Assembly (NCBI GenBank): GCA_964187785.1
Contig: OZ076409.1
Span: forward strand, 4,838,001 to 4,902,000
DNA: 64,000 nucleotides
Source of the DNA: Amphiscolops sp. MND2022
Taxonomy: Eukaryota
Reading direction: 5' to 3'
Shown here: piece by piece, positions 39,196 to 60,036 of the stretch
Numbering within the stretch: the stretch's first letter is position 1
How the letters are laid out: the number at the start of each line of letters is the position of its first letter
Notes under the pieces: generated by a model
Told to the model about the DNA's origin: nothing
Databases searched by the model: none
The model's input: only the letters and a program-made list of their open reading frames with translations
Made by a program: the position numbers and the translations under genes

Positions 39196-40044
39196 CTGAT
39201 TGGTGGAAAAACTGGCCAATAACCTTGTGGCAATTGTGAACCAATTTATTTTTGGGGCTTCGAGCTTCACGACATGCCCACATGATCAATTGTTTTTGCA
39301 GATTTTCGAACAGGTCATTAGCCTGATTTTCAAACTAATGAAGAAAATTTCTCAAAACCGAGAAAAGATATGGATACCATGTTGTCGCTAAACGCTGCGC
39401 AAAATTTTAGGCTATATTTTCGCCGGAAACTTTTTTTCAAAAACCGACTTCCTTGTTTTGAAAAAACGCAATTTTCAGTATTTTTTATCTTTTTGATCAT
39501 CCATATCTTAGAACCTATACCTTGCCTAAAAGTCCCATGTTGAGCACTCCCTGCGAATCGGTACAGATCTGCACAGATCCTGACAGATATTCCAGGATTG
39601 TTCGAAAATTGAATAGTCATAAATTCAGTTTTCGAAAAAGAAATTAGTTGGTTAAAAAGTGCTCTACGAAAAAAACACGCCTCCTATTCGAAGTTTTTAA
39701 AAAAATTCTGTGCGAATCTGTACAGATCTGTACAGATCCTTGCAGATATTCCAGGATTTGTTAAAAATTAACCATACCAATAAATTACTATGACGTATTC
39801 TGAGTTTCCAGCAATTACTAAAACTACTCCAGCAAACCATGTTCCCGAAGTATTACAACCACAGCACTCTATCATCACCCCAGAAGGTTGTTACATGTCA
39901 AATTTCATCCGTCAAAACGAAGTCAAAATGGCAAACGAGTCTCTCAAAGTTGAAAAACCACTTCTGGAAAGTTCAAGTGAAATGGATAAATTGCAGTGTA
40001 TAACCAACACCGAACATTCCCCAGACACCAAAATTACCGTGATG

Positions 40045-40456
40045 TGAGCTGTTAAAAAGTTTGGTGGTTGTTTCTTTTATACGAGTTAGAACTGACATAA
40101 GAAGTCTAAGATTTTAACAGCAGAGTCGTCTTATCTTTTATCTTATAGCTAGCTAGTTCAGAGTACAATCTATTTCTGAGATCTCAGTTCTTGAAGTGCT
40201 GGAAGAAGACTGATTGCTAGGAAGAATTCTCAATTTCTCCGAGTAGATATATTCTATTAACTAGGGTAGGTTACATCAATTAATATTGTGACAGCAACAG
40301 GATGAAGCAGGGAAGTTTGATACAGGATCTATTAAATGAAGTTTCTTCTAGAATAATTAGTTTCTAGATTCAATTAGATTTACTAATTTCTTCTGTTAAG
40401 AGTTCAGAGTATTTCAGATTTATAAAATCTTTGAGGACATGCATCATGGCATCACA
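40045..40456 (-). repeat. 3' LTR
   Basis: 412 bp; TGTGAT...AGCTCA on the element strand. Confidence 0.97.
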
Positions 40457-41633
40457 ATCAACCGGGAATTTAAAAATAAAAATTATATATATGCACTTTT
40501 GAGTTTGAGGAGTTCAAGAAGTTTTTGTTATGTGCATGGGTTTGTTTCATATGTGTTGTATTACAGTTGCATGAGTTTCGTTTTGTAGAGTACCATACTT
40601 AAGGAGTGAGAACAACCTAAGACGATTTGACTTCTTACGTCATAGACGATTCAATTGGTGCAAAAAGGTTCAAACAGGTTCAAGTTCTTTCAGTTTCTTT
40701 GACTGACAAGTTCTTTGAAGTTATTGTTGACAACTATTTATTCTTTCATGTTTCTTTATCGTACGTATCAGCTTTATTCTTTCATGTTTCTTTTTCGTAC
40801 GTATCAGCCATCGGCTTGTTGAAAAAGTTTGTTTCATCAACATGAGTTAGTCAGCATTGAAAACTTTTTAAGTTGAAGAATTAAAGCGTGGAGTTGTCAA
40901 TGAGTTGTGAACCAACATTGGCGGGTATGTGAACCAAAAGTGAAGAAAATTTGAAAAGTCAAGGTTGAAGTGAGAGTTCATTTTCACCAAAAGTGAAGAG
41001 TAGAGCAGAAGCAAGAGTTGAAAAAAAACTTTGGCTATTCCAAGTTTCAAACATTTGAAAACTAGAAGTGACATTTTTCACAAGTGACAATTTTCAAGAG
41101 TTCGAAAGAAAATTTTGGAAAATTTTTTGGGAATGCTTTCGAGGGTTAAAGGAAAGTTGTAGAAAATGTTTTGTAAAAGAAAAATTTTTGTCCAAAAATC
41201 TTAGAAAATTTCATGTGCTGTAAGTAGGACTTGTGTTCTGTAAAAAGACGGGGATTAAAATGTATTTTGGAGTGGATAATTATGTAAGATAATGTTAAAG
41301 TTCTATACACAATACAATGGAAGTAAATAATATTGTGGTTACAAGAATAATTATGGGTAGAATTTGGGAAGGATTATGGTTAATGGGGGGTAATTATACA
41401 ATGGTTAGATAAGATTAGGATTAAATAAGATTATATAGCGCTAAAGATTAGATAGGAATATATATCACTAGTATACTACGATTAGATAAGATTATATAGC
41501 ACTAAAAATTAGATAGGAGTATATAGCACTAGTCTATATTAAAGTTATGATTTGATTAAAATAGGTTACAGGTTATATTGGTTATAAATGATTATACAGT
41601 TCAGTTTGAAATTTGTATTGGCCATTGGAGTAT

Positions 41634-41817
41634 GAAGACCAGTTCACGAAGTCAGCAGTTGAGGTGTGAAGAAGACCAGTTCACAAAGTCAGCAGTTGAG
41701 GTGTGAAGAAGACCAGTTCACAAAGTCAGCAGTTGAGGTGTGAAGAAGACCAGTTCACGAAGTCAGCATTGGAGGATGAAGACCAGTCACGAAGTCAGCA
41801 TTTGAAGTGTGAAGACC
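41634..41817. repeat. 37-bp tandem repeat (about 5 copies) in the retroelement 3' region
   Basis: Unit gaagaccagttcacaaagtcagcagttgaggtgtgaa at 41634, 41671, 41708, 41745, then degenerate copies; no spacers. Confidence 0.9.
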
Positions 41818-42037
41818 GATGACGAGGACAATTTTTGGCAACGTCGATGAACCCAAAGTGTAGATGGATGTTGTTGACCATCGTGGGTGGGTGAAGTGAA
41901 GAGTTTCAGCATGTGTAGGAGTTCTTGGAAGTAATCATCAACCACATTTCGAAGCATCATCGAAAGAAGATGAAGAATTTGGAAACGAAATGTAGTCAAA
42001 GAAAGAAATAGAAGTAAGTAGAAGTTTGTGTTAGAGA

Positions 42038-42490
42038 TTATTGAAAGAGAGAGTTTTGCGATGGAGGATGAGGTTGGTGTTGGATCGGGTCATAAAGTTC
42101 TAGTTGTTGAGTATACCCGAAATCTTTCAGCATATTATTAAAAGCATCTGTAGCTTCTTGGATAGCAGTACGAAAGTACTGATCCTTTGACGTAAAGGAC
42201 GAATTGAGGACGAAAACAACATTAGATGCCGTTTCACAAATGGCAATTTTAGGTCCTTGAAGATGGATTCGCGAATATTGCTCGAAAGTGATTTTCTTTT
42301 TCTTTATTTGCGTGACATTGTAGAGTACTTTTAAGAAAGCGATGAGACATTTTGGCGTAATTTTGTTTTTGTGAATCTCAAGCGAGAGTTTGAAGGCCAT
42401 GGTATGATATATGGCGGCTTTAAGACTATGCACTTTCGAAAATTCTGAAGTCATTGTTAGAATGTCGTTTGTTTCAGCATTTGGAGCCAT
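42038..42490 (-). CDS. Retroelement accessory ORF C (150 aa)
   Basis: Sense ORF with ATG in ataATGg context; no recognisable motif. Confidence 0.55.
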   Translation of the reverse strand: MAPNAETNDILTMTSEFSKVHSLKAAIYHTMAFKLSLEIHKNKITPKCLIAFLKVLYNVTQIKKKKITFEQYSRIHLQGPKIAICETASNVVFVLNSSFTSKDQYFRTAIQEATDAFNNMLKDFGYTQQLELYDPIQHQPHPPSQNSLFQ

Positions 42491-42899
42491 TATGACGAGA
42501 GTTTGAAGAATACGAAGAAAGAGAGGTTGGGATGTTCTGAAAGAATTTGGATGAAGGAGAAGGAAGAATGGATGTTTCTAAAACAAAGGAAGTGTGAGAA
42601 GAAAGACAATATCAAGTCAAAGATGTACAACAAAAATGGGTGCTATAATGTGCCACATGTAGTATTATTTTAGATTGTCTTGTATGTCTTGTATTGTAGT
42701 GTTTAAAATAAAAAATAGTTAGTTTTTGGCATGTACTGTAGGAGAAATTAGTGTACTTAAAAAACAGTCCTGAGATTTCATTCAAAAGTAAAGATTTTTG
42801 TTAAATAAAAATGAAAATACCTTGTAGAATGTGCCACAGATGTACCAAAGAATGTATCAGAGAAGAAAATTTAAAACTTTATATTACCTGTAGAGAAGT

Positions 42900-43532
42900 T
42901 TAATGAAGATTAGTTGAATTAAAAAGAGTAGTTAAAGTTTCCAAAGCAGATTGAATTGCTTGGGATGATTGAGTGATGCGTTGAGAATCTAAATCGAGTG
43001 TCTGAAGGAGTTTGTGTGTTCTGTCATAACAGTGTAGTATATGTGTGAGTGTTGTGATAGGTGTTTCAGAGGAGTTTCGTTTATAGGGTTCCAGTAAATT
43101 TGTTATGTCTCGAAGTGTTCGATTGTTTAATACAGAGGAAAGTTTGTCATGAGTGTTTTTGATGGGCGAAGTGTGTGATTTATGTTCAGTTTTTTGTTCA
43201 GCTTGTACCATGAAAGAGATAGTTTTGGCAGATATAAAGAGAAGTTCATTGTAGGAATACGTTTGTTTGTAGAGTGCTGTATAGTATGTTCTATCTTTAT
43301 CGTCAAGTGGAGAAGAAACGAGGTGTTTAATAACAGTAAGAGGTTTTGCAATTTGAGTAGGGATGTTGCAAGGCAACAAAAAATCATCGTAATGTATGAG
43401 ATATTCTTGAGGTACAATAAGTGGACGTGAAGTATTGTTATATGGAAGCAAACAGAAGTATTGCTTTATAGGGTCATAGTTCCGAAGATAGCCTGTTATA
43501 CAGGAGTGATCGAGAGTGTACATATTTGTCAT
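42900..43532 (-). CDS. Retroelement accessory ORF B (210 aa)
   Basis: Sense ORF, ATG overlapping the TGA of ORF A; no recognisable motif. Confidence 0.6.
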   Translation of the reverse strand: MTNMYTLDHSCITGYLRNYDPIKQYFCLLPYNNTSRPLIVPQEYLIHYDDFLLPCNIPTQIAKPLTVIKHLVSSPLDDKDRTYYTALYKQTYSYNELLFISAKTISFMVQAEQKTEHKSHTSPIKNTHDKLSSVLNNRTLRDITNLLEPYKRNSSETPITTLTHILHCYDRTHKLLQTLDLDSQRITQSSQAIQSALETLTTLFNSTNLH

Positions 43533-44245
43533 TGTGAACGGTGATGTATATTTGTAATTGACAAAAATATAATTTTGTGGTTTGTGTAGTGTAGAAATTT
43601 AGTATATGTCTGATGATGAGAAGCTTTTTGTGCTATAGAGAGAAAGGATGGATCAGATTCATCCGTTTTGAGATCGTATATAGAAGGTCTAAGAAAATTG
43701 AATTGGAGAGAGAAAATTTTAACTCCATTCTCGAGCCAATATTGGTATGGACCCATTATTTTGGAAGCAATGGATGTGAAGAAGTCTTGATTTTTGTCAT
43801 ATAAGCGAAATGAGTAGTCAGTAGGATGCATATATAGAGAAGTTAGTTGTGCTTTGAAGACGAAATCGTCAGTGGAAAGAATTGAGATCAAATGATCATC
43901 GCGATTCGTGCAAAGTGAAATTTTTGAAGGTATTGAAGGAGGATATATTGGTGATGAAAGAAAGATTGGATCTTTCATTATTTCATATCGCTTTTTTGGA
44001 GGAGGTGGTGTCGATTGTGTATGATCAGTATCGTCTTGTGGAGGAGTAGGTTTTGGTTTTTCATTTTCAACTTTTGTGTGTTCCATTGGTTCAAGAAAAG
44101 TTGGAGGTGTTTTTTCAGAAGTATCAATATAGAGAACAGGAGAATCATTTGAAAGAGGTCTTGTTATAAGATCTGTTGGGGTTGCTTGTTCAAGCTGTGT
44201 TTGTAGGTCAATTTGTGCTTGTGTCATTGTTTGAGAAAGCATCAA
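43529..44245 (-). CDS. Retroelement accessory ORF A (238 aa, Pro-rich N-terminus, PPKKR NLS-like)
   Basis: Sense to gag-pol, downstream of env; its stop overlaps the next start (ATGA). Confidence 0.6.
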   Translation of the reverse strand: MMLSQTMTQAQIDLQTQLEQATPTDLITRPLSNDSPVLYIDTSEKTPPTFLEPMEHTKVENEKPKPTPPQDDTDHTQSTPPPPKKRYEIMKDPIFLSSPIYPPSIPSKISLCTNRDDHLISILSTDDFVFKAQLTSLYMHPTDYSFRLYDKNQDFFTSIASKIMGPYQYWLENGVKIFSLQFNFLRPSIYDLKTDESDPSFLSIAQKASHHQTYTKFLHYTNHKIIFLSITNIHHRSQ

Positions 44246-44491
44246 CAGTCACAGTGTTATCTATTCCAAGAGGCCTTAGCACTTTAAAGTTAAAGTACTA
44301 TAAATTACACTAACGAGTGGATTTGTCAACTTTAGTTGAAGAGTTTTTGAAGATGGTTATTATGAGAGAAGTATTATTGGACTGAGGAAGATGAATTTCT
44401 GCAAGAGTTTCAAGTGGTGGAGGAGTAGCAATTGTGAAGAAATAACAGGCGAGTGTTCTGGAAGAGAGTTACAGAAGAACTGAGAGAGAGT

Positions 44492-47239
44492 TCAAGAAGA
44501 TGGAGGAGGGAAAGGATAGTTTATTCGTGAATAGATTTTAATTGGTGTATCCGTAGTAGAAGTGACAGAATTGTTAATTAAAGTGTCATGTTGAGTAGTT
44601 AGATTGTCATTCGAGTGCAAGTTTTTATGAGTATAATTAGGAAGTGGGGGATGTTGGACAGAAGAGAAAGGAAGTGGAGTCGTTTTATGGTGAGAATTGT
44701 GGTGTCGTTTCGGAAAGAAGTTAAATTTAGGAAATTGAATTTTGTTAGATCGTTTAGTATAAAAAGGTGGAGGGGAAGTAACATCTGTAGAATGGTTAAT
44801 TAAATTGGGAGAAGTGTCAATAAAGTTATCTAAAGAATTGGATTTGGAAAGTGTACTTTTGGGTTTTTTGTTTTGAGCCTCATGTAGGTCACTGACCATT
44901 CGTGCTGTAAGAACATTAAAAAAACCATGTGCAATAGAACTAAGTAAAGTAATATTATTTTTAAGATTATATTTAATGGATATTGTTTTGTAAAGTTTAA
45001 CAATAAGTGTAAGAGTAGCTTGTACAAAAAGAAATGTAGAAAAGTATATGCCACATTGTGTAAGAATGTAACAAGGGTATCCAAAAAGTGCAATAAAAGC
45101 ATCAGAGAACCATGTAGGTGTGAAAAGAGGAGTTAAGTTCAAGAGTTTATCATGTAGTCCTATTCGTAATGTATTGTAAGGATTACCAGAGTCTTGAGGG
45201 GAATCTGCATCGTAATTTGGAGTATTAGATGAAATGAATGAATAACTAAGAGATTTACCTAGCAATTGGAGTGTAGAATCAGAGTGTTTAGAAAATAAAA
45301 TACGATTCCAAAATTGATCAAGTTCTGCATTTGAATATATACCAGCATCTTGGGCTGTAAAAGTATTAGGGCGTATTGTAGTTTTGATTTGTGAGGGTGT
45401 AAACATTAGTGGAGGTTTACGTTTGATAGGTTCAGGTCCAAGAATGTGAAAGTCTTGATCATCTGAATCAGGGTCTAGTTCAATAATGTTACGTGGATTA
45501 TTATCACATGTAATTGGTGTAGCATAATCATAAGTTTGTCTTGTAATAGGATCAACGTACATTAAGGTATCTTTAAAATGTATGGGTATACGGTCAAAGC
45601 ATCTATCTGCTTTGTATAAAGGAGATAAAAAATGAGGACAGTCATAAAGCCAGGCGGTTGAGCCTTCAACGTATAAGAAGTTACTTCTATTACCAGTTAA
45701 AAGGAAACCAGCAAGTTGAGGATTTTGTACTGACATTGCGAGTATTGTAAGGAGTTGATTTCGTTCTAGTTCACATATTGTATGAAGAGTATTTAGTTCT
45801 TGTACTGTCATTGATCGAAAAACATGAATAATAGTGTAGTCAATTTTGGTGTTTATTTGTGCATCATAATCAATGGTAGCGAAATTGTTTGATACATTTA
45901 ATGCAGGGAATACAAATTTGTTATTTGAAGTGTCCAATACTATTTTACCAGAGATATACTCATCAATTATGGAATGAGGATTAGGTTGTCCTGTATGCAT
46001 ATTAAAACCATCAGTGTATGTAACAAAAAGGTCTGAGTATTGTGTAGAATAGAGAGGGTCTGGTTTACCACAAAAGGTTTGTGCTGTAGGAAAAACTTCA
46101 AATCTTGAAAGACTTGGGTTATTTGGATGTTGTGTATGAGGAGCATGAACATAAGGGTGTTCTGTACCTTTTATGCCAGAAGCAGTTTGAGATTTTACTG
46201 GATGTGGAGAATGTACAAAAGAGTCTGTTTCAATCCAATATCTATCTTCAATTTTAGTCATACGTCCAATAAAGTTTTGTAGGGTAAAAATTAGACAATA
46301 ATCGTCATTAAACCAAACAAGAGTAAAAGGAGTTTTTGTAGTGGGTTTACAAAAGCCATCTGCAAAATAGCAGGGTAATGTATGTCCATCAATTATCATG
46401 TCATTTGATGTGTCATCATATGTAAGTTCTATTTCAGAAACTTCTAGTCGCCAACTAACTAAGTTGACTTCGAATTGATGATGAGCAGGACAGTTATGAT
46501 AAGGGTTTTTTGTAGGGTCATATATCCAGTTTTTGTCAGCAGGCATAAATGTAAATGTACCTGTATACATTTTGTTCAATTGATAGACAGTGAAAGGAGT
46601 TTGATATTGTTCTAAACGTTCTTGAAAATAATGGTCTTCTAAGAGTGTAAATGTTTTGTTGTAGTTAAGGTTGTTCAATATTTTATCATTTGTACCATTT
46701 AAATGTCTTATAATGTTTTTACATTCTACCGGATCAAGAGTAACAGGAAGCGGTAATGTATTATGATTCCATACGGTTCGATCAACACGACGGTATTTGA
46801 CAGATCCTTGAAAGCATATTTTCCTTTCTTTCTTTGCATAAGCAACACATTTGAAAGCTTTGATACGTTTAGCTTTTGCGCGGACATATACACGGGCTTT
46901 AACACTTGCATGTTTAATGTCAGAAGGAGCTTCAGTGCATTGTTTTACATTAAGTAGATTAAATTGTCTGAGATTGTGTTGTTTTGCACAATCATAATGA
47001 GAAACCATGAGATTTGTAATATTCGGGTCATCCGATGGAAGATAGTTTTCTGTGTCAGGGAGTACTATAGGTATGGAAAAGGTAGAGTTATAGAAGTGTA
47101 AAAAAAGAATTATAGTTGTTATATAAGAGGTTGTGTAGGATTTAAAAGGATGTCTTATATTTAAGACCAGAGTATGGGTTACAGAAGACAATGTTACCAT
47201 ACGTGATAGTGGGTATTTTAAGATCGCGTTCGAATTCAA
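44492..47239 (-). CDS. Envelope-like class III fusion glycoprotein (herpesvirus gB / chuvirus G-like)
   Basis: N-terminal hydrophobic segment, YDC..C start, many Cys and N-x-S/T sites, CELERNQLLTILAMSVQNPQLAGFLLTG..G....YDC..C..IP matching the gB/chuvirus domain III-IV pattern, C-terminal TM and long tail. Confidence 0.8.
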   Translation of the reverse strand: MNSNAILKYPLSRMVTLSSVTHTLVLNIRHPFKSYTTSYITTIILFLHFYNSTFSIPIVLPDTENYLPSDDPNITNLMVSHYDCAKQHNLRQFNLLNVKQCTEAPSDIKHASVKARVYVRAKAKRIKAFKCVAYAKKERKICFQGSVKYRRVDRTVWNHNTLPLPVTLDPVECKNIIRHLNGTNDKILNNLNYNKTFTLLEDHYFQERLEQYQTPFTVYQLNKMYTGTFTFMPADKNWIYDPTKNPYHNCPAHHQFEVNLVSWRLEVSEIELTYDDTSNDMIIDGHTLPCYFADGFCKPTTKTPFTLVWFNDDYCLIFTLQNFIGRMTKIEDRYWIETDSFVHSPHPVKSQTASGIKGTEHPYVHAPHTQHPNNPSLSRFEVFPTAQTFCGKPDPLYSTQYSDLFVTYTDGFNMHTGQPNPHSIIDEYISGKIVLDTSNNKFVFPALNVSNNFATIDYDAQINTKIDYTIIHVFRSMTVQELNTLHTICELERNQLLTILAMSVQNPQLAGFLLTGNRSNFLYVEGSTAWLYDCPHFLSPLYKADRCFDRIPIHFKDTLMYVDPITRQTYDYATPITCDNNPRNIIELDPDSDDQDFHILGPEPIKRKPPLMFTPSQIKTTIRPNTFTAQDAGIYSNAELDQFWNRILFSKHSDSTLQLLGKSLSYSFISSNTPNYDADSPQDSGNPYNTLRIGLHDKLLNLTPLFTPTWFSDAFIALFGYPCYILTQCGIYFSTFLFVQATLTLIVKLYKTISIKYNLKNNITLLSSIAHGFFNVLTARMVSDLHEAQNKKPKSTLSKSNSLDNFIDTSPNLINHSTDVTSPPPFYTKRSNKIQFPKFNFFPKRHHNSHHKTTPLPFSSVQHPPLPNYTHKNLHSNDNLTTQHDTLINNSVTSTTDTPIKIYSRINYPFPPPSS

Positions 47240-48398
47240 TATGTACTACTTCAAAAGGAGCAGGAGAGGTTTGATGTTCTATTTTAGAAACGTGAAATAT
47301 TGGATGAGGATTTAATCCTTGAAATTTGACTTTGACTTCGAATTTAAGTTCTAAATTTGGTGTCTGAAGACGTTTTAGTTCTGTTTCTTTACGTTTATGA
47401 GATAAGAGATCGTTGTTATTAATGAAACGTTCTGCAAGAATTGGAAATCGAGGATCGTTTTGTGGGTCGTAGATAGTTATACCATCGACTCGAAGTGGGT
47501 AATCAGCAAAATTTGGGGTTGGAGGTCTAGAATGTTCTGCAGTATAGTATTCAGGTAGTCTAATATGTGCAGGAACAGGAGTAGGGATTACTACTTTTGA
47601 AAAAAGATCTCCTGATAGGAATGCAGTTTGTGGGTTAGATGAGAGTAATGAAGCGGTTTCAAAACCAGAAGTAAAATAAGGAGATTGAAAGAGTTCTGAA
47701 GATGATGGGTCAGAGGACAATGGTTGAGCGTGTTGTCTTACAAGTCGTAATGCAGAATTGCTAGAAAGAGCGGAAAAATTGAGTGTGGAAGTGTCTGTAC
47801 TAAGTCTACGTGAAGGAAGGTCACGAAGATGATATCTATGTCTAGGTACAAAAAATGAGCTTGTGTCTTGTGATGGAGCGTAGTCAGAAGTATTATTGTC
47901 TAAGAGATTTGAGAGTGATGTAGAGGGTTTTCGAAGATGTTTTAATGGTGGATAAAGTTTTGAAGAAGTAGTGCTAAGTTCTGTAGTGCTAAGTTCTGAA
48001 GGTAATTTTAGTGGAGGTAGTTTCGTATATTCAGTATCAGGAATTTGTACTAGATTAAGTTGAGGTTGGAGTCTAACAGTTTTGATAGCTGTAGGGTGTT
48101 TGTATGTTACGTATTGTTCAACACTTTCAGGGTTTGGTATGTGTATAATAGGAGTGTTAATAGGAGTTTGTTGGGGACGAGTGTTTATAGGAATTTCGGT
48201 TATAGGTGGTCTGTGAAGAAGTGAAGAAGAAGTGGTTTCAGAGATGTATGATCTGGGTCTTTTAGAAGGAGTAGTAGGAGTTACATTACTAGAGTTTGTA
48301 GTGTTTGATACTGAAGATTCAGGTGTAGAAGGAATACTTGGAGCTGATGGAGAGATATCAGAGGGAGGATCCAGGATTGTTGAAGTGTTTTCAACAGG
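47142..48398 (-). CDS. Ser/Thr/Pro-rich open frame between pol and env (419 codons; start apparently damaged)
   Basis: Manual translation shows the 47142-47720 frame is stop-free up to 48398; contains PSAP (48339-48350) and LYPPL (47943-47957). Confidence 0.7.
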   Translation of the reverse strand, partial: PVENTSTILDPPSDISPSAPSIPSTPESSVSNTTNSSNVTPTTPSKRPRSYISETTSSSLLHRPPITEIPINTRPQQTPINTPIIHIPNPESVEQYVTYKHPTAIKTVRLQPQLNLVQIPDTEYTKLPPLKLPSELSTTELSTTSSKLYPPLKHLRKPSTSLSNLLDNNTSDYAPSQDTSSFFVPRHRYHLRDLPSRRLSTDTSTLNFSALSSNSALRLVRQHAQPLSSDPSSSELFQSPYFTSGFETASLLSSNPQTAFLSGDLFSKVVIPTPVPAHIRLPEYYTAEHSRPPTPNFADYPLRVDGITIYDPQNDPRFPILAERFINNNDLLSHKRKETELKRLQTPNLELKFEVKVKFQGLNPHPIFHVSKIEHQTSPAPFEVVHIEFERDLKIPTITYGNIVFCNPYSGLKYKTSF

Positions 48399-48499
48399 TT
48401 ATCTTTAAGATAACTTGTTATGGGTTTTATTTCATTTATTCAACATTCATTCAACCGGAGTGACTAGGTTTGAGTAAGCCAACAGATAGAATGACTAGA

Positions 48500-51400
48500 T
48501 TACAGTTGGGAAGGTGTAATAAAAAGTCTATAATCTAATTTGGGTTGTTGTCGTAGTTTATAAGTGGTTTTTGTGGTTCTGTCAATTAGAGGAGGAAGTG
48601 AAGTTGTTTGGTTGTTAGAAGGGTGTCTCGATCTGTCACTAGGGACATTAGTGTGAGGGGTATTAATTATATGTTTATATAAGGAGTTGTCATTGGTTGA
48701 GGAAGGTAAAGACTTGTCATTGGATGTTATAGATGGTGTATTTTGATTGGATGTACTAAATGATTGTGGTGTCATAAATGTTTGAGAATCTTCTTCAGAC
48801 AAAGATTCATCAGAGTTAAACGGGGAAGAATCACTGTTTGCATATCTGGTAATTTGTGGAATTGGGTTTTGAGTTGTGTCTGAAAAGCGCATAAAATTAC
48901 GCAAATGTGGATATAAGAGTGGTTCTTTAGGGTAATATGGGATTAAATGATTTCTATGAACGTGTACTGTAGAGCCATCTTGTGCAAGTAATGCATATGT
49001 GACGTCTGATAGTCTGTCAAGAATTTTATATGGTCCAATCCGAAGGGGTTTGAGTTTGTCAGAAAAATGAACATGTGTAAAATTGCGTTTTAAAACAAAG
49101 GTACCAATAGGAAGGGGTTTACTTTCGTAGTAAGTTTTTGTAATGTATGCGTGTGAATTAATTTTTCGTAGGGTGTTTTCGTAGACTGTGGAGTAAATTT
49201 GTAACATAGCAGTTTCTACAGCAAGAAACCATTGGGGAATGTTTTATAGAAAAATGGGCTTAAATCTGATTTATCATAGTGAGAGTGTTCAGGGAGTTGA
49301 GAGCAATAGCGTGAAATACATGTCTTGGAGGTATCTCGATTAAGGTTTAAATCAAATGTGAGGGGTATTCTGGGTCTAGTATGGAAAACAATTTCGTGAG
49401 GTGAAACATTGAGTTCTGAAAGTGGTTGTGAATTATGTGCATAAGCGTACATATGGACTTGAAATGCCCAATCTTTAGGTGTGTCATGTAGAAACATTCG
49501 AAGATGAGTACCAAGATTTCTGTTTTGTACTTCAACAAGGCCATTTGTCCAAGGAGAATAAGCTGTTCTAGGAGAATGACGAATTCCCATAAGTGTACAA
49601 AGATGTGCCATTTCTTTGTTAACATATTCTGATCCACGATCAGTGACAAGGTATATGGGTGGTCCAAATTTAATAATCCAATGGTGTAGGAGGGTTTTGA
49701 TAGCAGTCTTTGCGTTGTTTGATTTGATGGGTACTGTAACAACAAAGTGACTAAAAGCGTCAATTATTACATGTATATAGGATTTGTTATGAGAAGGAGG
49801 ATTAATAGGTCCTTTAGTGTCCATTGAGATTCTATAGTTGAAAGATGGAGCATGTTCTGAAAATGATTGTGTAGGAGCAGTTTGAATTTTCATATTGAAG
49901 TGCTTATTACGTTGACATTCAATACAGTCATGTATGAAAATAGAAAGCCATTTTTCAAGGAATGGAATATAGTAATATTGTTTGAATGTATTGTAGGTGA
50001 TTTTCATACCAGTGTGAGAATGTTCATGAAGTTTGTTAAAGACAGTTTTAAACAGTCGGAAAGGTAGGCATATGCGAATAGTATCTTGTACAAAATTTGG
50101 AGTAGAGGATTGGTTATTAACAGTGGGGTTTGTAATATACAGACTAATAGGATTAGTGGATTCATCAATGAAAAGTTGTGAAAATCTTTTGTAATATACA
50201 TGTAGAAATGAAGTACCAGTGATAAGAGGTGTTATAAATTCGGGTTTTTCATTGTTTAGTAACCAAGAGTAAACAGTTCTGAGAACCGGATCTTGAGATT
50301 GTTGTTGTTGGAGAGTTTTTATGTCTAATGAGTAATCATCGGGGAGGAAGAAACATTGAAAATAGTTTTTGTACTTAAAAAATGATGTATCATAAAAAGG
50401 TATAATTTGTTGACAGTGTGTGAGAGATGGTAAATTTGGTTGTACATTTATTGCAGAAATTGATTTCTGTGAGGTGTTGTAACTTGGTTGTTTAAGAGTA
50501 GAATAATTTTTTGTTTGTAATGTAGTATCTTGTGAGAAGGAAGAGTCAGATTTTGGAATTCTGGTGTAAATATGATCTTCGTCATCACTTGTAACGTCAG
50601 TATCATTAAGTAAGAGAGATTGTTGATGAAGGGTTTTGTTGTTCTTTTTTGTAGGTGTCTTAAATTTGGTTTGAAAAGGAGTTACAGATTTGAATGAGAA
50701 AGATTGTAAGGGTTTTACAATAATGTCATTTCCTTTATCATTGATACGAATAGAGAATTGATCTGTACCATAATCAGCAAGAATTGGATGAGAGTCATGT
50801 TTTTGATGGGGTAAAATTTCTTCATGTTTTATTAAGTAATGTACAGGTTTAAGAGTGTTATCTTGTAAAAGTGCAAAATCGATTTGTGGTGGGAGGTGTT
50901 TATGTTTTAATTGGTTAAGTTGTAATTCAGCTTTTGTGAATGAGCGACTCAACATATCGGCAAGAGATAGATTTTTTCCAGGGGTGTGAATTATTTTGAG
51001 TTTTGAAAATTTTGTCAATTGCATTTGAGCTCTATAGAAACGAGGGCTGAGATTACCTTTCTTTGTAAAACATTGTAATAAAGGTTTGTGATCAGTGAAA
51101 ATGTGTATTGGATGTGGAGAACCTATGATAAGAAATTCATAGATTTGAAGTGCGTGTACTATACCAAGGAGTTCTCTATCAAGTGTGGAGAGTTTTTGTT
51201 CTTGTGGGCTAAGTATACGAGAGTTGTACGATATGACTTTCATTTTGTTTTGTTCATTTAACTGGAATAAGACAGCGCCTAATCCAATAAGGGAAGCGTC
51301 AACTGTAATGAAAAATGGATGTTTTGTGTTCGGTATTGTTAATTCTGTTTCAGAAGTGAGAGACATTTTAAATTTTTGGAATAGACTTTCGTGTTCGTCT

Positions 51401-54400
51401 GTCCATTTCCAAGGAGTGTTTTCATGTAAAAGATCGGAAAACGGTTTGAGGTTAATATGTAGTTTTTCAATAAATTTAGTGTAAAAATTGAGTGCGCCAA
51501 TGAAACTCATTAGGGCAACTTTGCCAGTTGGAGAAGGGATCTTATGAATAGCTGCAATTTTTGAATGAATTGGTTTAATTGTATTGTAACCAATTTCATG
51601 TCCAAGGAATTTGACTTTAAGGAGCATGAAAAAGGATTTTTCAGGGGCTAGTTTAAGATTATTTTTTGTACTGATAATGTGTAATTGTTCTATGAGTTGA
51701 AACATGTGTTCTTTAGAGTCGGATAAAAGTAATATATCGTCAATGTAGACAAGAGCGAAACCTTGTTCTATAAGAGTTTTAAAGAAAGTAGACATTTGTT
51801 TTGTAAAGAAATTTGGTAGTCCTTTGGGACCATAAAAGCCTCGTATGAAAGCGAAAAGTTTGTCTCCTGAAGAGAAGCTAGTAAGTTTTATAGTATCTTC
51901 GTCAAGAGGTGTATGTGCAGAGGCATACATAAGGTCAATAGCAGATTTGTACTTTTTGTTTGCGCGTGCTAGTTGTGGAGCAAGAGGTTCAATAGGCCAA
52001 GATTCATCAGATTGGTCTGTATTGGAATTAAGATGTCGAGCGTCTAATACACATTTTATTGTATCTCCCTTGGGGATTATAATAAGAGGATTTAAATAAG
52101 TTGTGCCATAAACGGGTTTGTCTTGAGGAGAAGAACCAATTTGTTTAATAATGTTATATTTTTCGAGTTCTTTGAGAAGTGCATTTAATTTGTCTCGATA
52201 ATGAATAGGGACTTTGGAAGGACGTTGTGTCATAAGTTGAGCATTTGGTTTAAGTCGGATACGAAAGGGTGTTGAAATTTTTCCAACATCGTTTTTATGG
52301 GTTGCATAACATGTTTTATATTTGAGTAGCATATTGCAAAGAGTAATGTATTCTGAATCTGTAAGGTCAGAAAATTGGAAGTTAAATTTGTTAATAAATT
52401 TCAGATTTTCAGAAGTATATGGAAGAGAAGGGAAAATGCGTTTTTCTGAGGTATGAGAAGTAGGTTGAACGTTATATAGGGGAGAAGTTTGGTTTGGAAT
52501 GTTGTCATTTGTCATATAAATTTGATGTAAAGAGAATTGTGGAGGAGGGGTTGTAGGATCATCATATTGTACAATATAATTGGTCTGTGGAAGTGGTTCG
52601 GTAATATCAGGATGATAAGTATGAGTAACATTATGTATTAAAGTATTAATGTCGTTAACTTGGAAGAATTTAGGTTTTTCATTAGTAATTGGAACTTCGA
52701 TGTAGCCAATATGTCCTGTAGGTAGCGTTGCAATATGTTTTGAAGTGTTTTGAATAATAGTTGCACATATGTCTGGCTTGTCGTCTGTAAAAACTTCAAT
52801 AAAATTGAAAGTTGTACGGAATTTGGTAGCAAAATAGGTATGAGGTACTGAAGGAAAGAAGTGGTTTTGTGGTGTAGTTGTAAAATGAAGATTATGATAA
52901 TTTTTGATCGGAAAGTGTGCAATTTTGGAAGATTTGGGTTTTAAACGTATTTGAGTTTTTGAGTTAATTCTATAAATGTAAGAGAAGTATGGATAATCTT
53001 TAGATAGAAGTGTTGTAAATTTTGCATAATTTGGGTGTGTTTTTGATTGGTATTTAAATTCGAGTGTAAAGTCTTGTATGTTTATGTTTTGTATATTGTC
53101 TTCGAAGAATGGTGTACCAAGGATATTGTATTTAATATCAGCTACTGCGAAGGGTACTGAAAAGTATCGAGAGTTTTCGTCAATAGTGGTGTTCAGAATG
53201 ATATTTGCATAATGTAAAATAGGAACTTCAGTTTGGTTTGCAACAGTTAGTGTTTTGGAATTTCTAGTTGGTCCAACATCAGAGGTGTGATTTGGTCTGA
53301 TATCAAGAAGTTTTGTAAGAGTTATGTATGTTGGATAATTGAGTACAGAAATGGAAGCACCGCTATCTAGGAGGAATGCAATTTCTAATCTAGATGGGTT
53401 GTCTCTTTGTACTACACTTGATGGGGTGTGTACATATAGAGTATAAAACCAACTTGTAGGCGAGACAGCATTTGCCATTGCTGTTGGGTGATACATGTGT
53501 ACTTCAAATTTGATAGGATCAGTTTGTTCCTGTTGTTGTATTATATTGATTTTATTTCTGGAATTTGAATGTGATCGGGATCTGGAAAATCGAGAGTTTC
53601 TTGGTCTAGAAGGTGGTCTATATGAATTTGTGTATTTGTTATATTTGTCATCTCTTGAATAGGAGCGTGATCTGTATCTAGGACGAGAATTTTGTCTATA
53701 TGGAGATCTATAAGAAGATCTGTAAGGAGAACGGTAAGATCGAGAATCACGTTTATATGTGTCATATCTTGATCTGGAGTAATGTGGAGGAGTAGTACTT
53801 TTGTCATAACGAAATCGGTCTCTATCTCGAGATGTAGAACGGTATCGATCTTGTGAATAATTTTGGTTATAAGAGTTGTCTCGTGAAGTACTTCGACTTC
53901 GATATCGATTATCATAGTGTTTTGTTTTGTCATTTGAAGGGGAACGAAAGTACTGAACGAATGATTTTTGTGGAGATTTTGATCGAGCATATGCTTCTCG
54001 TTTATCTTGATGATCTCGTTGTTTTTTGAAACAAGCAGAAATGGAATTATTTGTTCTATGACAGTATGAGCAATATTTTTTATATGCAGGTTTATTTTTG
54101 TTATTCGGGTCTTTGGGTTGTGTATACATAAGTTGTTCTTGAGATGGGTGATCTAGGGTTTGAGTGTTCAATTGTTTTGTAATATTGTTGATTTCAAGTG
54201 CAAGATCATGTGTTCTAATTTTGTCGTTTGCAATATCTTCAGCGTCAACAAGTTTTACCAAAGTATGAAAAGGAATCGAAGGTTCTAAAACAGTAGAGGT
54301 GTGTTTTACTTGTCTTTTGTTTGCAAAGTCTTTAAGGGTTTTTGGAAGTCCTTTTGTAAAGATTTCATTGCATTTAAGGTTGATAGTAGATGCATTCTCA

Positions 54401-56929
54401 TTACACCAGCCTTTTTCAACCAGTTGTTGAACTTTGAGTGCAAAATGACGTACTGTTTCATTATCTTTCTTTGTTAAGTTAAGGGCTTCAACTTGAGCAT
54501 ATTAAGCGTTCTTTTGTGAGGAAAATTGTTTTTTGAAAGCTTGTACAAAAGCGTGCCAATCATGTTTATAAGTGTCGTTTAAACGGATGTACCAGCTTAG
54601 TGCTGTACCTGTTAAAGAGCATTGTATGAAAGCCATGCGGCGAGCGTGCCAAAATTTATATTCATGTTCTGATGTAGGTTGTAAACCTAAAGAGAATGTA
54701 ACACGTGCCTCAATATGTTGTAAATATTCTTCAGGTGTATAATTGTGATCGAGTCCATCAAAAGGTTTAATGGGTTCTGATATAGAAGTAGAAGAGTTAA
54801 TATATGTTGGATGTGACATAGTGTTACGAGACATAGTAGATGGAGGTGTTGTACTATACGTAGGATGGTTTGAAATATTAGTTGAAGGTATAGTTGAAGT
54901 ATTATGAAAGTGAGGGTTAGTTCTAATTGTTGTTGAAGGAGGATTTGATATTTGAAAGTGAGAGGTTTGTAATGTAGGAGGGATTGTATTGGATGTATGC
55001 TGGGAAGAAAGAGTGTTTAATTGATTGTGTGTGTTATAATTTATTTGAGATTGTGGGGCATGACTTGGATTGGTACTGGTAAGATTGTATGATAATGGGT
55101 CAGTTAATATAGGTTGTAATGGAGGTCGAGACAGATGTCTGGCTGTAGTATAGTTAGAGAGCGGGTTAGAATGAATTGTGTTAATATTTAAAGTAGGCTG
55201 TGTAGTGTGTACTGGGTTAGTTTGAGCTGGAGTATAAGTTGAAGTTTGCATTTCAGAAGATGAAGGTGGAGTTGGTGTTTGGAAATGTACTGTATTATTG
55301 TTCTGTGTAATAGAGTGTGTATTTGATGAGCTTGGTTGAGGAGAGACATGAGTATTTATTGGAGCTGAGAATTGAGAAGGAATAGGAGGTGGATCATAAT
55401 TTCGAGGAGGTAGTATTTGTGTCTGAGAGGGTTGTGTAATATTAGTATTATATGGAGATAAAACAGAAGTATTGTCTGTGATGACATTTGAAGGGTTGTC
55501 TTGATTCTGATTTGTAGTCCTTTGGGTGATATTATGGGTAGGAATTGTTATAAGATTGGAGTCCTCAGTTATTGTAAAACTTTGTGGATTTTGTACTGTT
55601 TCGTCAGAAAGTTCTGATGTATTGGGAAGTGTATGTGTTTCAGACGGATTTGGTTGTCGCGTATCAGAGATTTGTGATTGTGGTGGCTGTGGTGATTGTT
55701 CTTGAGGAGAATCAGGATTTTGAAAAAGATGAACAAGTGTTTCTTGTGTTATAGATTCTTGTTCTGATTGTTCTGATTGTTGTCTTATATATGGAGGTTC
55801 AACATTAAAGGTTTGTGTTTGAAGAGTTGTTTGATGTAAAGTATCAGATGTAATATAAGGTCTACTATCTGACGTTTCAGAATGTTCAAGTACAAAGTTG
55901 TGATCTAGGTTTATTTGTTCAAAATGTGTAACATTTAATGAAGTAAGATCTATGTAATGTAAGTGTTTGTTTTTATTGTCTATGATGTATGGTAAGAGTT
56001 CTATATCTGTTAATGCTTTTGGGAAGTTAGTATAAGCGTTTTGGTCTTTTTGTTCCCAGAGTAATTGGTAGTTAAATCTAAAGAATTTTAATAAGAAATG
56101 TGTAAAAATTTTGACTTGAGGTATAGTGTCATCTGTAAGGGTAATTTTTGTAAAGAATTTGAACTCGAAATTCTTTATTTGTAATATCTCGTTGTAGCCA
56201 ATAATGAGGGTTACTATGTCTTTGAACTTTTGTGTCAAGATCAGGGACCTCGAAATATTCAGATAAGTGTTTTATTTCTTGTAAATGAGAAGGACGATAA
56301 GGTGGTATGTCTTGGTGTTCATTGAATTCAATGAGTTTTTGCATATATGTGCGAAAAACATCTTGTATAGAAAGTGTAATATTCTGTGGATGTATAGTTC
56401 TATAAAATGTTCCAGAGTTTATTCCTTTAACAGGGTTAAAAATAGTTTGGAAAGGAGTTTGTGATGGTGTTATGTCAAGTGTTTTATATTGGATATAATA
56501 TAAGTAGGAATCACAATGTTCTCGTATTAATGGAATAGTGTGTAATATATGGGGTTCTGTTTCAAATGGAAGTGGGTTAGTGTACTGAAAGATAATATTT
56601 TGTAAAAAAGGTGTTACATATTGTATAAGAGATCGATTTTGTCTTTTATCAGTAGAGACTGTAAATGGAGTGGGGAGCATTATATGATATTAAGTTTGAC
56701 TAGTACAATAGGATTGCCATAAAGGATAGATGTATCGGAAAAGAAGATATTTTGTATTGAATTGTGAATTATATGGTAAAATTTGATCTATGAAAATAAC
56801 TTGTAGGAAAATAGTAAGTACAATACTTATGAAAAGAAGAAGTGAGTTTTGTATATATTGGATAAGTATTTTGAAAGTGTGGTATATACTAAGTAGTCCA
56901 AAAAGAGGTAGTACTATACTTGTTAACAT
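48500..56929 (-). pseudogene. Gag-Pol polyprotein (hydrophobic N-terminus, capsid, Zn knuckle, RS region, protease, RT, RNase H, integrase with GPY module) broken by 2 stops and 2 frameshifts
   Basis: ORFs 56690-56929 and 56129-56680 share a frame across a TAA; frameshift near 56185; 54502-56238 and 49216-54261 share a frame across a TAA; frameshift near 49240. Motifs PFDG..LTGTALSWY, CSYCHRTNNSISAC, LLDSGAS, YIDD, VDAS/TDHKPL/ADMLSR, HEHSH..CIEC, MDTKGP/TDRGSEY/GLVE, GPYKI. Confidence 0.92.
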
Positions 56930-56948
56930 AGAAGGAAAAAGTTGTACT

Positions 56949-57071
56949 TTAAAATTTTGGTATAAATGAAATTAAAAATTTGTCTAGAAAAAGTGCAAGA
57001 CCGGCAACGATAGCAACAAAGAACCAAAAGCAGACAATGAGTTTGACTACAATGTCTACTGAAGGCGGCAT
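56949..57071 (-). CDS. 40-aa hydrophobic upstream ORF in the retroelement leader
   Basis: MPPSVDIVVKLIVCFWFFVAIVAGLALFLDKFLISFIPKF*; single transmembrane-like stretch; below the ORF-track cut-off. Confidence 0.4.
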   Translation of the reverse strand: MPPSVDIVVKLIVCFWFFVAIVAGLALFLDKFLISFIPKF

Positions 57072-57749
57072 GTACAATAAAGTTCTATAAGAGTGTGTCA
57101 AAGAAGTTGTACAAAAATTTGTTGTATGTAGGTGTATGAAAAATGAAAGTAATGTAAAGAGAGGTGTGATATATGTGTTATATATCTTAATTGTTATGTA
57201 TTTGGATCCGTAAGAGAGTTTTAAAGGAGTTTTGTATGTGGTTTGTAGTATAGAAGAGAGAATAAGAAAAGTATTATAATTATGTTATGTAAAAAGATGT
57301 GTTATATAGGTGTGCCAACTTTAAAGTTGATCCAAGCGGCTAGAACCAAAGAGATTTTTACTAGCAGGAATCGCTGGATAGCACTGTAGAAGGGCCAACA
57401 CGTATCGCACGTCTGCGGTTGGAACGAAAGAAAGATAGAAGAAAAAAGCCAACACGAATTCACGCAGAGGTGGTTGGAACGAAAAATTTAATTGACAGGA
57501 ATTACGTGAAGAAACGTAGTCAGAACCAAGAAGTATGACTGACAGGAATTACGTTGATGAACGCAGTCAGAACCATAGCAACACGGATCAATTTCAAGTA
57601 GAAATTGGTTGCAACGTTGAAGTTAATAACGGTATGCAATATTGAGAGGTGGAGAGACTGTGTGTCGAACAAAGAGATATCGAATGAGAAAGTTGAGGAA
57701 AGGTGTACAACAATTGTAGATGTGTGAAATAAATGGGAGAGAAAGAAGA

Positions 57750-57767
57750 ATTTTCGTGGTCGCACCA
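57750..57767 (-). promoter_or_regulatory. Putative primer-binding site
   Basis: TGGTGCGACCACGAAAAT begins 2 nt inside the 5' LTR boundary; cognate tRNA not assigned. Confidence 0.7.
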
Positions 57768-57769
57768 AT

Positions 57770-58181
57770 TGAGCTGTTAAAAAGTTTGGTGGTTGTTTCT
57801 TTTATACGAGTTAGAACTGACATAAGAAGTCTAAGATTTTAACAGCAGAGTCGTCTTATCTTTTATCTTATAGCTAGCTAGTTCAGAGTACAATCTATTT
57901 CTGAGATCTCAGTTCTTGAAGTGCTGGAAGAAGACTGATTGCTAGGAAGAATTCTCAATTTCTCCGAGTAGATATATTCTATTAACTAGGGTAGGTTACA
58001 TCAATTAATAATGTGACAGCAACAGGATGAAGCAGGGAAGTTTGATACAGGATCTATTAAATGAAGTTTCTTCTAGAATAATTAGTTTCTAGATTCAATT
58101 AGATTTACTAATTTCTTCTGTTAAGAGTTCAGAGTATTTCAGATTTATAAAATCTTTGAGGGCATGCATCATGGCATCACA
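57770..58181 (-). repeat. 5' LTR
   Basis: 412 bp; differs from 40045-40456 at 2 positions. Confidence 0.97.
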
Positions 58182-60036
58182 GATGGGGACAAGACTTCCT
58201 GCTCAAGAATTTTGGGCGATGACTGAGAATTGGTCAGCAAAAATACTTGTTGAAGGACCCCAAAAATGCAATATATTGTTTCCCAGAAGCTCCGGAAAAA
58301 AAATCCTTCAAAATCTGTACAGAAACTCCTTGAACATCTGTAAAGATCCTTGCAGATCTGCAGTTGTCCTTACGTAGCAGTGGCACGATCTTTACAGATC
58401 CTCGAGGAAAACTGGCTCACAGATCTTTACAGATTCTCAAGGAAAGCTCAACATGGGGTGACGTCAAATTTTTGTTCATTGTTTTTTGTGCAAAAAAAGT
58501 TATGAGAAAAAATGTTTGATTTTTTTCCCATTCTCAGCTCATATTTTTCAAAACTGAAAAAAGATACGGAAATCATTCTCCCTCTCACATCACAGCAAGG
58601 ATGTAGGCTAGTTTTTGTAGCATTAAAGTTTCCGTCATGAAGTATGACGCCTTCGTGTTTCTGCCAAAACACTTTTCATTTTTCTAAAATTTTGTCTCAA
58701 TTTTTTTTGCTTTCGTCAAAAATTCCTCATCTAAGACTACATAAACTCAAATTTTTTTGAGCCCTGTTATATACACAAATTTTAGTATTTTCGAAACTGA
58801 ATTTACATTGAAACTTTCAATACAAAAAGTAGCTTTCTCAAATTTTCAACTTAACCAAATATATGACCAAAAGTTTCAACATTCCGTCTAAACTAGCAGT
58901 GGAAGTCTTTTTCCTCTACAATTTGACTTTTACACCATTGTACGCAGCATCCGCTCATCAATTGGGTCCGTTTCTAACTGTCAACTATTTTTTGATTTAA
59001 CAGGTTCATTGTTTTGACACCACAGGTTTTTGATCTTTGCGAATCTGTGCAGATCTGCAAGATTTTTGCCGAACTTTGCAGATATGTGCAGATTCGAAAA
59101 AAATGACCAACTCAGAATTTCAATAAAAACCCCGCTGCGATGTCAAACGAATAATGAAAATGTTTAACACTGGAGAGAAGTCTCATTTATGCCAAAATGA
59201 TAAAGCATTTTTCTGCAGCAATCTGTACAGACCTTTAGAGATTTGCAGATCTTTACAGAGACAAACAATGACCAATAAAAAACTGTAACGTATTCCGAGT
59301 TACCAGCAATTGCTAAAAATACTCCAACAAACCTTGTTACCAAAATATTACAACAACAACACTTTATCAACACATACCAACTCAGAAGGTTGCCACATGT
59401 CAAACTTTATTCGTCAAAAGTCAATATGGCAAACAAGCCTCTCAAGATCAACAACGACTTCTGTAAAGATTCTGCAGATCTGTATGGTTCTTCAAGATTC
59501 AGTGCAACGATCTTTGCAGCACCCTGCAAAAAAATCCTGCAGGTCTACACAGATTTGCAAAGATCGAAAACCTGGGACCGCTAAATAGCAATTTTGGAAA
59601 TTAGCGAGCGCGCAGAATGTTTCAAGCAATTCTATTAGCAAGTGAAATTAGTGGCAGTTAAAAGACCGTCAGAATTCAAAATGTCCTCGAAGGTTGCACA
59701 GAATTTCAAAATTCCAACTCCTATTCTTGAATTAAGGTATTTTAAAACATACTTGAAGTTAAACATTTAATAGTTGAAGAAAAGGTTTTTCAGCGAAATA
59801 TCGATTATGAAATTAGCAGTTTAGCCATTGGCGAAAAAAATAGCGATGTCAAAAGCTGAACAGGTTACAGTTTTTCAATCGATTAGGAGGTAATTAACCT
59901 GTTAAGGCTCTAGTTGGCTATCATTCGAGTGCTGTATAAGATTATTCTGGGATCATTATTGGTCATTTGTCGATTGTAGTGCCTTTAGTTTGAAAGTGAA
60001 ACTTTGAGAAGCGAGTTTCAGATTTGTTGTATCTTC

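Follow-up and report, generated by a model that had tools for sequence, protein, structure and literature searches.

A probable 18-kb Ty3/Gypsy endogenous retrovirus of Amphiscolops sp. MND2022 with a predicted class III envelope glycoprotein and three accessory genes under apparent constraint

What kind of genetic element extends over 18 kb of the genome of Amphiscolops sp. MND2022, and are the open reading frames (ORFs) that surround its envelope (env) gene genuine genes? The element lies on contig OZ076409.1 (assembly GCA_964187785.1), in the 64,000-nucleotide stretch from 4,838,001 to 4,902,000 that was analysed here and is referred to as the window; all coordinates below are window positions. 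It is a long terminal repeat (LTR) element of 18,137 bp (40045–58181), and it is very probably a defective insertion of a young, very high-copy, env-carrying Ty3/Gypsy endogenous retrovirus family with a class III Env and three constrained accessory genes. All its long frames are on the minus strand, as are the features described below unless stated otherwise, so that the 5′ LTR is the one at 57770–58181 and the 3′ LTR the one at 40045–40456. The LTRs, compared by direct repeat search and alignment, measure 412 bp each, differ by two mismatches and no gaps, and have TG..CA ends in the sense orientation. A 4-bp target-site duplication, GATG on the plus strand, flanks the element on its 5′ side (58182–58185) and on its 3′ side (40041–40044). 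The near-identical LTRs and the duplication had been pointed out in the initial annotation of this DNA, made from the sequence alone, and both are confirmed; no strand had been given there.

The env gene (44492–47200) encodes 902 residues from its first ATG, in a frame of 917 codons from stop to stop (44492–47245). Its sole Pfam match is PF24664 (Monjiviricetes_fusion; E 1e-22, 80.2 bits against a 27-bit cut-off), a model that also matches all 29 aligned Env relatives, down to 22% identity, with a best E of 1.2e-47. No match by sequence was found in the PDB, either with the single protein or with a profile, and a fold search was therefore needed. The AlphaFold model of the ectodomain, built on the alignment of Env relatives, has a mean predicted local distance difference test score (pLDDT) of 67.7 and contains β-rich domains and a central 45-residue helix (residues 406–450). 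Foldseek returned 95 PDB matches with E ≤ 0.001, and all 32 of those listed, which extend to rank 50, are herpesvirus glycoprotein B (gB), the best with E 1.4e-10. Structural alignment with VIA-align gave a Z score of 11.4 to gB over 432 residues, covering model residues 23–628, and of 8.3 to the glycoproteins (G) of rabies and Mokola viruses. When predicted viral structures were searched, glycoproteins of arthropod chu-like and related negative-strand viruses ranked first (E 4.4e-26 to 1e-22), ahead of rhabdo-like G and then gB; Foldseek probability was 1.00 in this search as in that of the PDB. The model places Env among the class III fusion glycoproteins, of the chuvirus/rhabdovirus/gB kind, in agreement with the gB/chuvirus-like nature initially assigned to it, for which the same combination of AlphaFold and Foldseek had been proposed as a check. 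The sequence also presents an N-terminal hydrophobic signal peptide, one C-terminal transmembrane segment, 16 cysteines and 12 N-glycosylation sequons, and no furin motif is found in it; the protein would be uncleaved and would give particles a means of cell-to-cell or extracellular entry. The cytoplasmic tail (~44492–45000) comprises ~165 residues, with a PPxY motif kept in all five lineages compared below. In the Env tail of a distant metagenome relative the motifs YPDL and PSAP are present; short motifs of the budding type on Env, beyond those of gag, would be unusual.

Regarding the gag-pol region (48500–56680), comparison with sibling copies indicates a single frame of ~2,730 codons in the family, which is broken in the window copy. 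Pfam models and motifs follow each other in one direction: Retrotrans_gag, a zinc knuckle, DSGA, RVT_1 with the catalytic YIDD, RT_RNaseH_2, Integrase_H2C2, rve and SH3_Tf2-1. This is the order of protease, reverse transcriptase (RT), RNase H (RH) and integrase (IN) that had been read at the outset. The capsid-like domain (Retrotrans_gag, 54402–54630), cut by a stop private to this copy, matches with E 7.6e-4, below the Pfam cut-off, and reaches E 3.3e-8 and 34.1 bits (cut-off 24.1 bits) in a sibling with an open frame. The nucleocapsid zinc knuckle (54031–54072) is a canonical CX2CX4HX4C in all ten siblings, and in the window copy a substitution has replaced its histidine ligand. The aspartic protease is recognised in the translation by its active-site motif DSGA (53356–53367); no protease model was matched in the Pfam scan of the window copy. 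Then come the RT (RVT_1, 51592–51957, found by Pfam and by match to solved structures), the RH (RT_RNaseH_2/RT_RNaseH, 51007–51405), and the zinc-binding (H2C2) and catalytic core (rve) domains of the IN (49552–50058). The C-terminal SH3/GPY-F-like module of the IN (48938–49075), which matches SH3_Tf2-1/Integrase_p58_C with E 7.7e-6, again below the cut-off, is out of frame through a 13-nt loss. Gag is unusually long for a Gypsy element: its N-terminal half (~54700–56680) holds ~500 low-complexity residues rich in serine, threonine, proline, glutamine and asparagine ahead of the capsid domain, with a pooled ratio of nonsynonymous to synonymous differences per site (pN/pS) of 0.39–0.46 among siblings. 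A PPHY motif follows the zinc knuckle.

When the RT-RH-IN part was compared with solved structures, the best match was the Ty3 Gag-Pol polyprotein (7q5b, E 5.8e-49), followed by the Ty3 RT (4ol8, 4.9e-35), a caulimovirus polyprotein (8.5e-26), foamy-virus Pol (7.7e-16) and, more weakly, other retroviral enzymes. BEL/Pao models are absent from the Pfam matches of the window copy. This ranking supports a pol of Ty3/Gypsy (Metaviridae) type, and the Gypsy-type label given earlier stands.

Three further ORFs accompany gag-pol and env. The first, named STP for its richness in serine, threonine and proline (47142–48398), has 418 codons with conserved motifs, and its 3′ end overlaps the env start. 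The second (42900–44242) has 449 codons in the family and is split here into frames of 239 and 232 aa. The third (42038–42490) encodes ~150 aa from a conserved MAP start, in a frame of 179 codons from stop to stop. The serine/threonine/proline frame and the glycoprotein had been correctly recognised after pol in the initial annotation (they measure 418 and 917 codons), together with three more ORFs, two of which are in fact pieces of the one 449-codon gene; its count of six or seven genes becomes gag-pol plus four (418, env, 449 and 179). At the composition of the sense strand a stop is expected by arithmetic about every 17 codons, and the long frames therefore exceed chance. Unconstrained frames of up to 203 aa exist in alternative frames of the element, so that for the shorter frames length alone is no proof of coding.

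The proteins themselves were compared across related copies at two distances. Ten sibling copies were compared gene by gene with the window copy, without joining or merging them, and the env-proximal 10 kb was compared with one copy from each of four diverged cousin lineages (A2, B, C and B2; loci L021–L024). These lineages belong to the same genome, where several sister lineages encode close relatives of the Env protein, with thousands of first-look candidates per lineage; in the nearest cousin lineage 48 of the 50 scored env matches are free of stops. All four cousin loci keep the same order: the end of the integrase, a frame of 420–477 codons that ends at or overlaps the env start (broken in one lineage), an env of 863–952 codons whose product is 50–80% identical, a frame of 491–577 codons (broken in one lineage), and a frame of 158–318 codons. 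Between lineages, synonymous sites are near saturation (pS 0.6–0.7, Nei–Gojobori). Against this background, the ratio of nonsynonymous to synonymous substitution rates (dN/dS) between the window lineage and its nearest cousin is 0.15 for the 418-codon gene, 0.13 for the 449-codon gene, 0.11 for env and 0.17 for the integrase C-terminus. Between the two B lineages it is 0.06 for the 449-codon gene and 0.07 for env, the 418-codon frame being broken in one of that pair. The 179-codon gene has pN 0.27 against pS 0.86 between the window lineage and the nearest cousin, and dN/dS 0.27 between the B lineages. Among the ten siblings, pooled pN/pS is 0.24–0.51 for gag, pol, env and the three accessory genes. 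The extra ORFs, on whose presence and constraint in sibling copies the initial annotation had staked its reading, are thus both present and constrained in siblings and cousins.

An alternative is that the extra frames are non-coding, chance open frames of a G-poor sense strand with few TAG and TGA codons. Such frames do occur: unconstrained ones of 100–203 aa are found in alternative frames of the element, and a 100-aa frame overlapping the end of the 179-codon gene (pN/pS 0.97, with no alignable counterpart in the nearest cousin) behaves neutrally, as does one of the two leader frames (pN/pS 1.31), the other (0.52, bordering the range of the genes) being less clear. The 100-aa frame was rejected as a gene, and so were the leader frames of 111 and 93 aa, which display no clear constraint; the leader that contains them (56681–57749) is taken as non-coding. 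The accessory proteins are also without a family, fold or protein atlas match. For the 449-codon protein nothing was found below E 0.16 in a Pfam scan of four members or below E 1.3 in a PDB profile search, and no usable match in the atlas; the 418-codon protein matched neither Pfam nor the atlas. What the chance explanation does not accommodate is that the 418- and 449-codon frames keep their position, length and protein sequence in spite of saturated synonymous sites (pS 0.6–0.7), with dN/dS of 0.06–0.15 in the closer pairs, and that an alignment of the 449-codon protein from four lineages contains 114 invariant columns, the databases holding 290 relatives of it, none with a name or a Pfam domain. 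The 179-codon protein is 61% identical to its counterpart in the nearest cousin and 24% to that of lineage C, with which it has an ITFEQY..IH-like motif in common. We regard chance frames as a very improbable explanation overall and, for the 418- and 449-codon genes, as already largely refuted. On these sequence comparisons the three frames appear to be real genes under purifying selection, and they would be lineage-specific accessory genes retained by it.

The length of the element could also have a trivial origin, an ordinary Gypsy element having received a one-time insert of another element or of an unrelated viral fossil, such as a chuvirus glycoprotein gene with its neighbours. In arthropod genomes, fossils of Jingchuvirales glycoproteins are frequently neighbours of Gypsy fragments, according to Dezordi et al. 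2023 (PMC10084718). In the present case, ten siblings have the same LTR-to-LTR spacing and internal order, the layout is kept in four diverged lineages, and all genes lie on one strand and are under selection. The strand asymmetry is uniform from LTR to LTR (GC skew 0.28–0.50) and ends at the element ends, being near 0 in the flanks. In addition, a distant metagenome relative carries gag-pol, an env of the same family and post-env ORFs on one contig. A composite origin is therefore extremely improbable. The family would have the layout LTR, leader, a gag-pol frame of ~2,730 codons (capsid, zinc knuckle, protease, RT, RH and IN), the 418-codon gene, env, the 449-codon gene, a ~150-codon gene, a repeat-bearing 3′ untranslated region (UTR) and LTR.

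That metagenome relative was found in a scan with the Env alignment, which yielded seven loci. It is a 13-kb contig with a Gypsy gag, protease, RT, RH and IN that match the same Pfam set and a PF24664 env (E 7.3e-38, 28% identity), followed by frames of 368 (+102) and 312 codons. On a second metagenome contig, env is preceded by a frame of 316 codons and followed by one of 497. The extra ORFs of these relatives (L025, L030) have no detectable similarity to the accessory proteins described here or to each other, and they are therefore positional counterparts only. Slots for additional genes on either side of env may be a common trait of the lineage that bears this env. A collection of viral contigs was also searched for Env relatives, and none was confirmed.

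The gene ahead of env has a singular feature: its frame is devoid of methionine codons in each of the four lineages that keep it intact (418, 420, 477 and 443 codons). Conservation of the protein starts at an I/N-L-D motif in which a CUG (48372–48374 in the window) encodes leucine; in all five lineages this CUG is flanked by A at −3 and G at +4, a context retained in nine of the ten siblings. ATGs were counted in all three frames from this CUG to the env AUG and compared with an expectation corrected for dinucleotide content; there are 2 in the window lineage against 7.9 expected, 3 against 11.3 in A2, 1 against 7.3 in B, 2 against 8.2 in C and 0 against 6.5 in B2. Elsewhere in the element ATGs exceed expectation (gag-pol, 122 versus 102; env, 59 versus 44; the 449-codon gene, 21 versus 19). 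In every lineage the first AUG met after the CUG is that of env, or nearly so, and an AUG-poor zone upstream of env is also found in two distant relatives.

This pattern suggests a bicistronic messenger with a CUG start and leaky scanning. One subgenomic messenger would carry both the 418-codon gene and env; a minority of ribosomes would start the serine/threonine/proline-rich protein at the conserved CUG, a weak initiation codon in good context, and the remaining ones would scan on through an AUG-poor stretch of ~1.2 kb until they reach the AUG of env. Both components have retroviral counterparts: the vpu-env messenger of HIV-1 is bicistronic and read by leaky scanning, and some retroviral proteins are CUG-initiated. 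A different arrangement is reported for the env messengers of some insect Gypsy elements, in which splicing supplies an AUG from the leader or from the beginning of gag. By analogy, the 418-codon frame might be a downstream exon spliced to such an AUG, with env reached by leaky scanning past that AUG or through a second splice form. The absence of methionine in four of four lineages and the depletion of AUGs as far as the env AUG would also fit this case, and the leader is itself AUG-poor (1 ATG in element positions 501–1000 against 5.9 expected). As a matter of general knowledge retroelement env messengers are usually spliced, and for Cer1 this is stated in PMC10309623. On the other side, in the window copy the frame is bounded by stop codons just 8 codons 5′ of the conserved CUG, conservation between lineages does not reach beyond this CUG on its 5′ side, and inspection by eye showed no obvious splice acceptor. 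The spliced-exon arrangement is a serious contender, although somewhat unlikely, and initiation at the CUG is preferred. Fusion of the 418-codon frame to env by frameshifting was also rejected, the two frames being separated by a 128-nt gap in one lineage. For a 10-kb query no RNA run was listed, and the contigs of the one run found (X1, of uncertain kind) match the element in short pieces with two low-support joints, which are uninformative on splicing and expression.

The family to which the window copy belongs is young and expanding, as expected from the recent activity initially proposed for the lineage. Of the 2,474 first-look candidates for the LTR in the 1.07-Gb genome, 40 matches were scored; every one is 99–100% identical, and many are paired at a distance of 17.6–17.7 kb. 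In the 11 copies the two LTRs differ at 0–3 of 412 sites (0–0.7%), and the copies differ from each other by 1–3%. The window copy is defective, with five lesions that are absent from all ten siblings. A 2-nt shortening near 56184 detaches a 186-aa N-terminal piece from gag; a TAA stop (54502–54504) interrupts the capsid domain; the substituted histidine ligand damages the zinc knuckle (54031–54072); a 13-nt shortening near 49242 puts the integrase C-terminus out of frame; and the loss of 1 nt near 43584 splits the 449-codon gene into its 239- and 232-aa frames. This copy is thus not the potentially infectious element that had been suggested. Two apparent features are explained by these lesions and were rejected as such: the 186-aa frame upstream of gag is the detached gag N-terminus and not a separate gene, and programmed readthrough at the gag stop is discarded by the absence of that stop from all ten siblings.

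In the siblings, gag and pol are in one frame, uninterrupted for up to 2,120 codons, from gag into the RNase H, and in another stretch for 1,792 codons, from the nucleocapsid to the integrase end. The env frame is open in six of the ten siblings (four at 917 codons and two with in-frame indels), the 449-codon gene in five and the 179-codon frame in nine. Three copies with identical LTRs nonetheless carry frame breaks in gag-pol, which means either that the lesions were already in the copied RNA, defective genomes being mobilised, or that some are assembly errors. This situation points to defective genomes often being mobilised by proteins from other copies, or to indel errors in the assembly; genomes like that of the window copy would be mobilised in this way.

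Several observations weigh against the proposed reading. In the window copy the capsid domain and the integrase C-terminal module fall below their Pfam cut-offs, and a polypurine tract is not recognisable in the bases directly upstream of the 3′ LTR. The Ty3/Gypsy placement derives from a similarity ranking headed by Ty3 (5.8e-49). No family match was obtained for any of the three accessory proteins in Pfam, among solved structures or in the atlas; the AlphaFold model of the 449-codon protein, with a pLDDT of 36.3, is unusable; and the 179-codon gene is only 15–16% identical to the frames at the same position in the B lineages, which makes homology doubtful there. The roles given to these proteins come from analogy. 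The five lineages are of common ancestry, so that the AUG-depletion tests are not independent, and splicing, the CUG start and the expression of the genes are predictions from sequence. Finally, the whole gag-pol frame is open in none of the ten siblings, so that current activity of the family is no more than a possibility; some of the frameshifts could be assembly errors.

The layout can be compared with those of several known systems. The insect errantiviruses in the strict sense (gypsy, ZAM, Idefix and 17.6) are about 7–8 kb long and are not known to have further genes. The present element resembles them in its Ty3/Gypsy backbone, in the position of env after pol and in the probable production of Env from a subgenomic messenger; their Env is of the baculovirus F type (class I), whereas here only PF24664 was matched and the predicted fold is class III. 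The mosquito BEL/Pao elements, Anakin and related ones, reportedly carry a Chuviridae-like glycoprotein (work attributed to Dezordi et al. 2020), and the likeness to them lies in the use of a Jingchuvirales-type class III glycoprotein as Env, pol being Ty3/Gypsy-like here and not BEL/Pao. Complex retroviruses (lentiviruses, deltaretroviruses and spumaviruses) have accessory genes between pol and env and 3′ of env, and a strand-biased base composition. The element is similar to them in the positions of its accessory genes, in an upstream frame that overlaps the env start in another frame, in the AUG-poor path and in the strand bias; it differs from them in a pol much nearer to Ty3 and in accessory proteins without similarity to the retroviral ones. 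Within the superfamily, additional ORFs are said to occur in plant elements, and the rotifer elements attributed to Rodriguez et al. 2017 reportedly provide a precedent for accessory genes. According to PMC10309623, the Ty3/Gypsy element Cer1 of C. elegans has an extra gene whose product, CERV, regulates the RNA of the element itself. Cer1 is similar to the present family as an animal Ty3/Gypsy element with an extra gene, and it is a precedent for accessory regulators; no sequence relation was detected, the position of the gene differs, and Cer1 is not known to have a class III env in this layout. By analogy with complex retroviruses and Cer1, the accessory proteins described here may serve regulation (RNA export or expression) or counter-defence.

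The closest known elements are those surveyed by Chary & Hayashi (eLife 2026, PMC13524379), who describe env-carrying Ty3/gypsy elements, with an Env of F type or herpes simplex virus (HSV)/gB type, across metazoan phyla. They include 114 gypsy elements with a chuvirus-like glycoprotein, in Coleoptera, Hymenoptera, Polyneoptera and Hexanauplia, and place the first sighting of that glycoprotein in mosquito BEL/Pao elements. Two expectations of the initial annotation are accordingly not upheld: on this source HSV/gB-type env is widespread in Ty3/gypsy elements and not mainly a BEL/Pao feature, and the combination of a Gypsy element with a class III env is already published. The HSV/gB-type elements ("errantiviruses" in a wide sense) and the present family have in common gag-pol-env, a Ty3/gypsy pol, a class III chuvirus/gB Env and many near-identical copies. 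The difference lies in the distances and in the additional genes: here gag to env spans 12.2 kb, the pol–env gap of 1.3 kb holds a conserved gene, and two more genes follow env. The filters of that survey (candidate regions of 3–10 kb, a POL-ENV gap of ≤1 kb and a search for gag, pol and env only) would tend to miss such a family.

The element is therefore of a known kind, and what is new is how large it is, the three accessory genes kept under constraint and the gene without an AUG that precedes env. No report of conserved accessory genes in an animal Gypsy element with a class III env was found in the literature searched, and the family may be present in the supplements of PMC13524379; the three accessory genes appear not to have been described. 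A broader proposal, which we put forward as tentative and on balance unlikely, is that an invertebrate Ty3/Gypsy clade has independently reached the grade of a complex retrovirus, with three accessory genes around a chuvirus-type env, a CUG-started, AUG-less gene on a bicistronic messenger, an AUG-free path of 1.2 kb to env, and accessory proteins that act as regulators of viral RNA or antagonists of host silencing; judging by the positional counterparts in distant relatives, such slots would be widespread, though overlooked, among carriers of this env. In PMC13524379, Gypsy elements with a class III env are catalogued as three-gene elements, with filters that would pass over the 18-kb form; here, one large family keeps three further genes under apparent selection, one of them with a signature of AUG-free expression. 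This raises the question of whether invertebrate retroelements, in parallel to vertebrate complex retroviruses, came to possess genes for regulation or counter-defence. The copies with identical LTRs that are already lesioned would also make the family a natural system for the mobilisation of defective genomes.

Outside the coding region, a primer-binding-site-like stretch (TGG..., 57750–57767) was recognised 2 nt past the 5′ LTR. The 3′ UTR contains tandem repeats of 61 bp × 1.9 and 37 bp × 5.1 (41419–41815), and also a 36-bp unit that is present twice in the window copy (40737–40808); 36 nt are missing at this place in seven sibling loci, and the unit is therefore a length polymorphism of the family. 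An Rfam search of the element matched no family. The sense strand is very poor in G (G makes up 10% of all bases and C 24%, and at the third codon positions of pol G accounts for 4%), a property common to the four cousin lineages (8.6–11.9% G), for which replication bias, editing of the cDNA and selection are possible causes. Finally, 4 kb from the LTR element the window contains a block of low GC content (25–29%, 22000–36000) with ORFs on both strands, which match a Pox_A32-type packaging ATPase, an rve integrase and a double jelly-roll capsid domain (E 2e-22), together with a long frame containing Endonuclease_7; from these matches the block looks like a Maverick/Polinton-type element.

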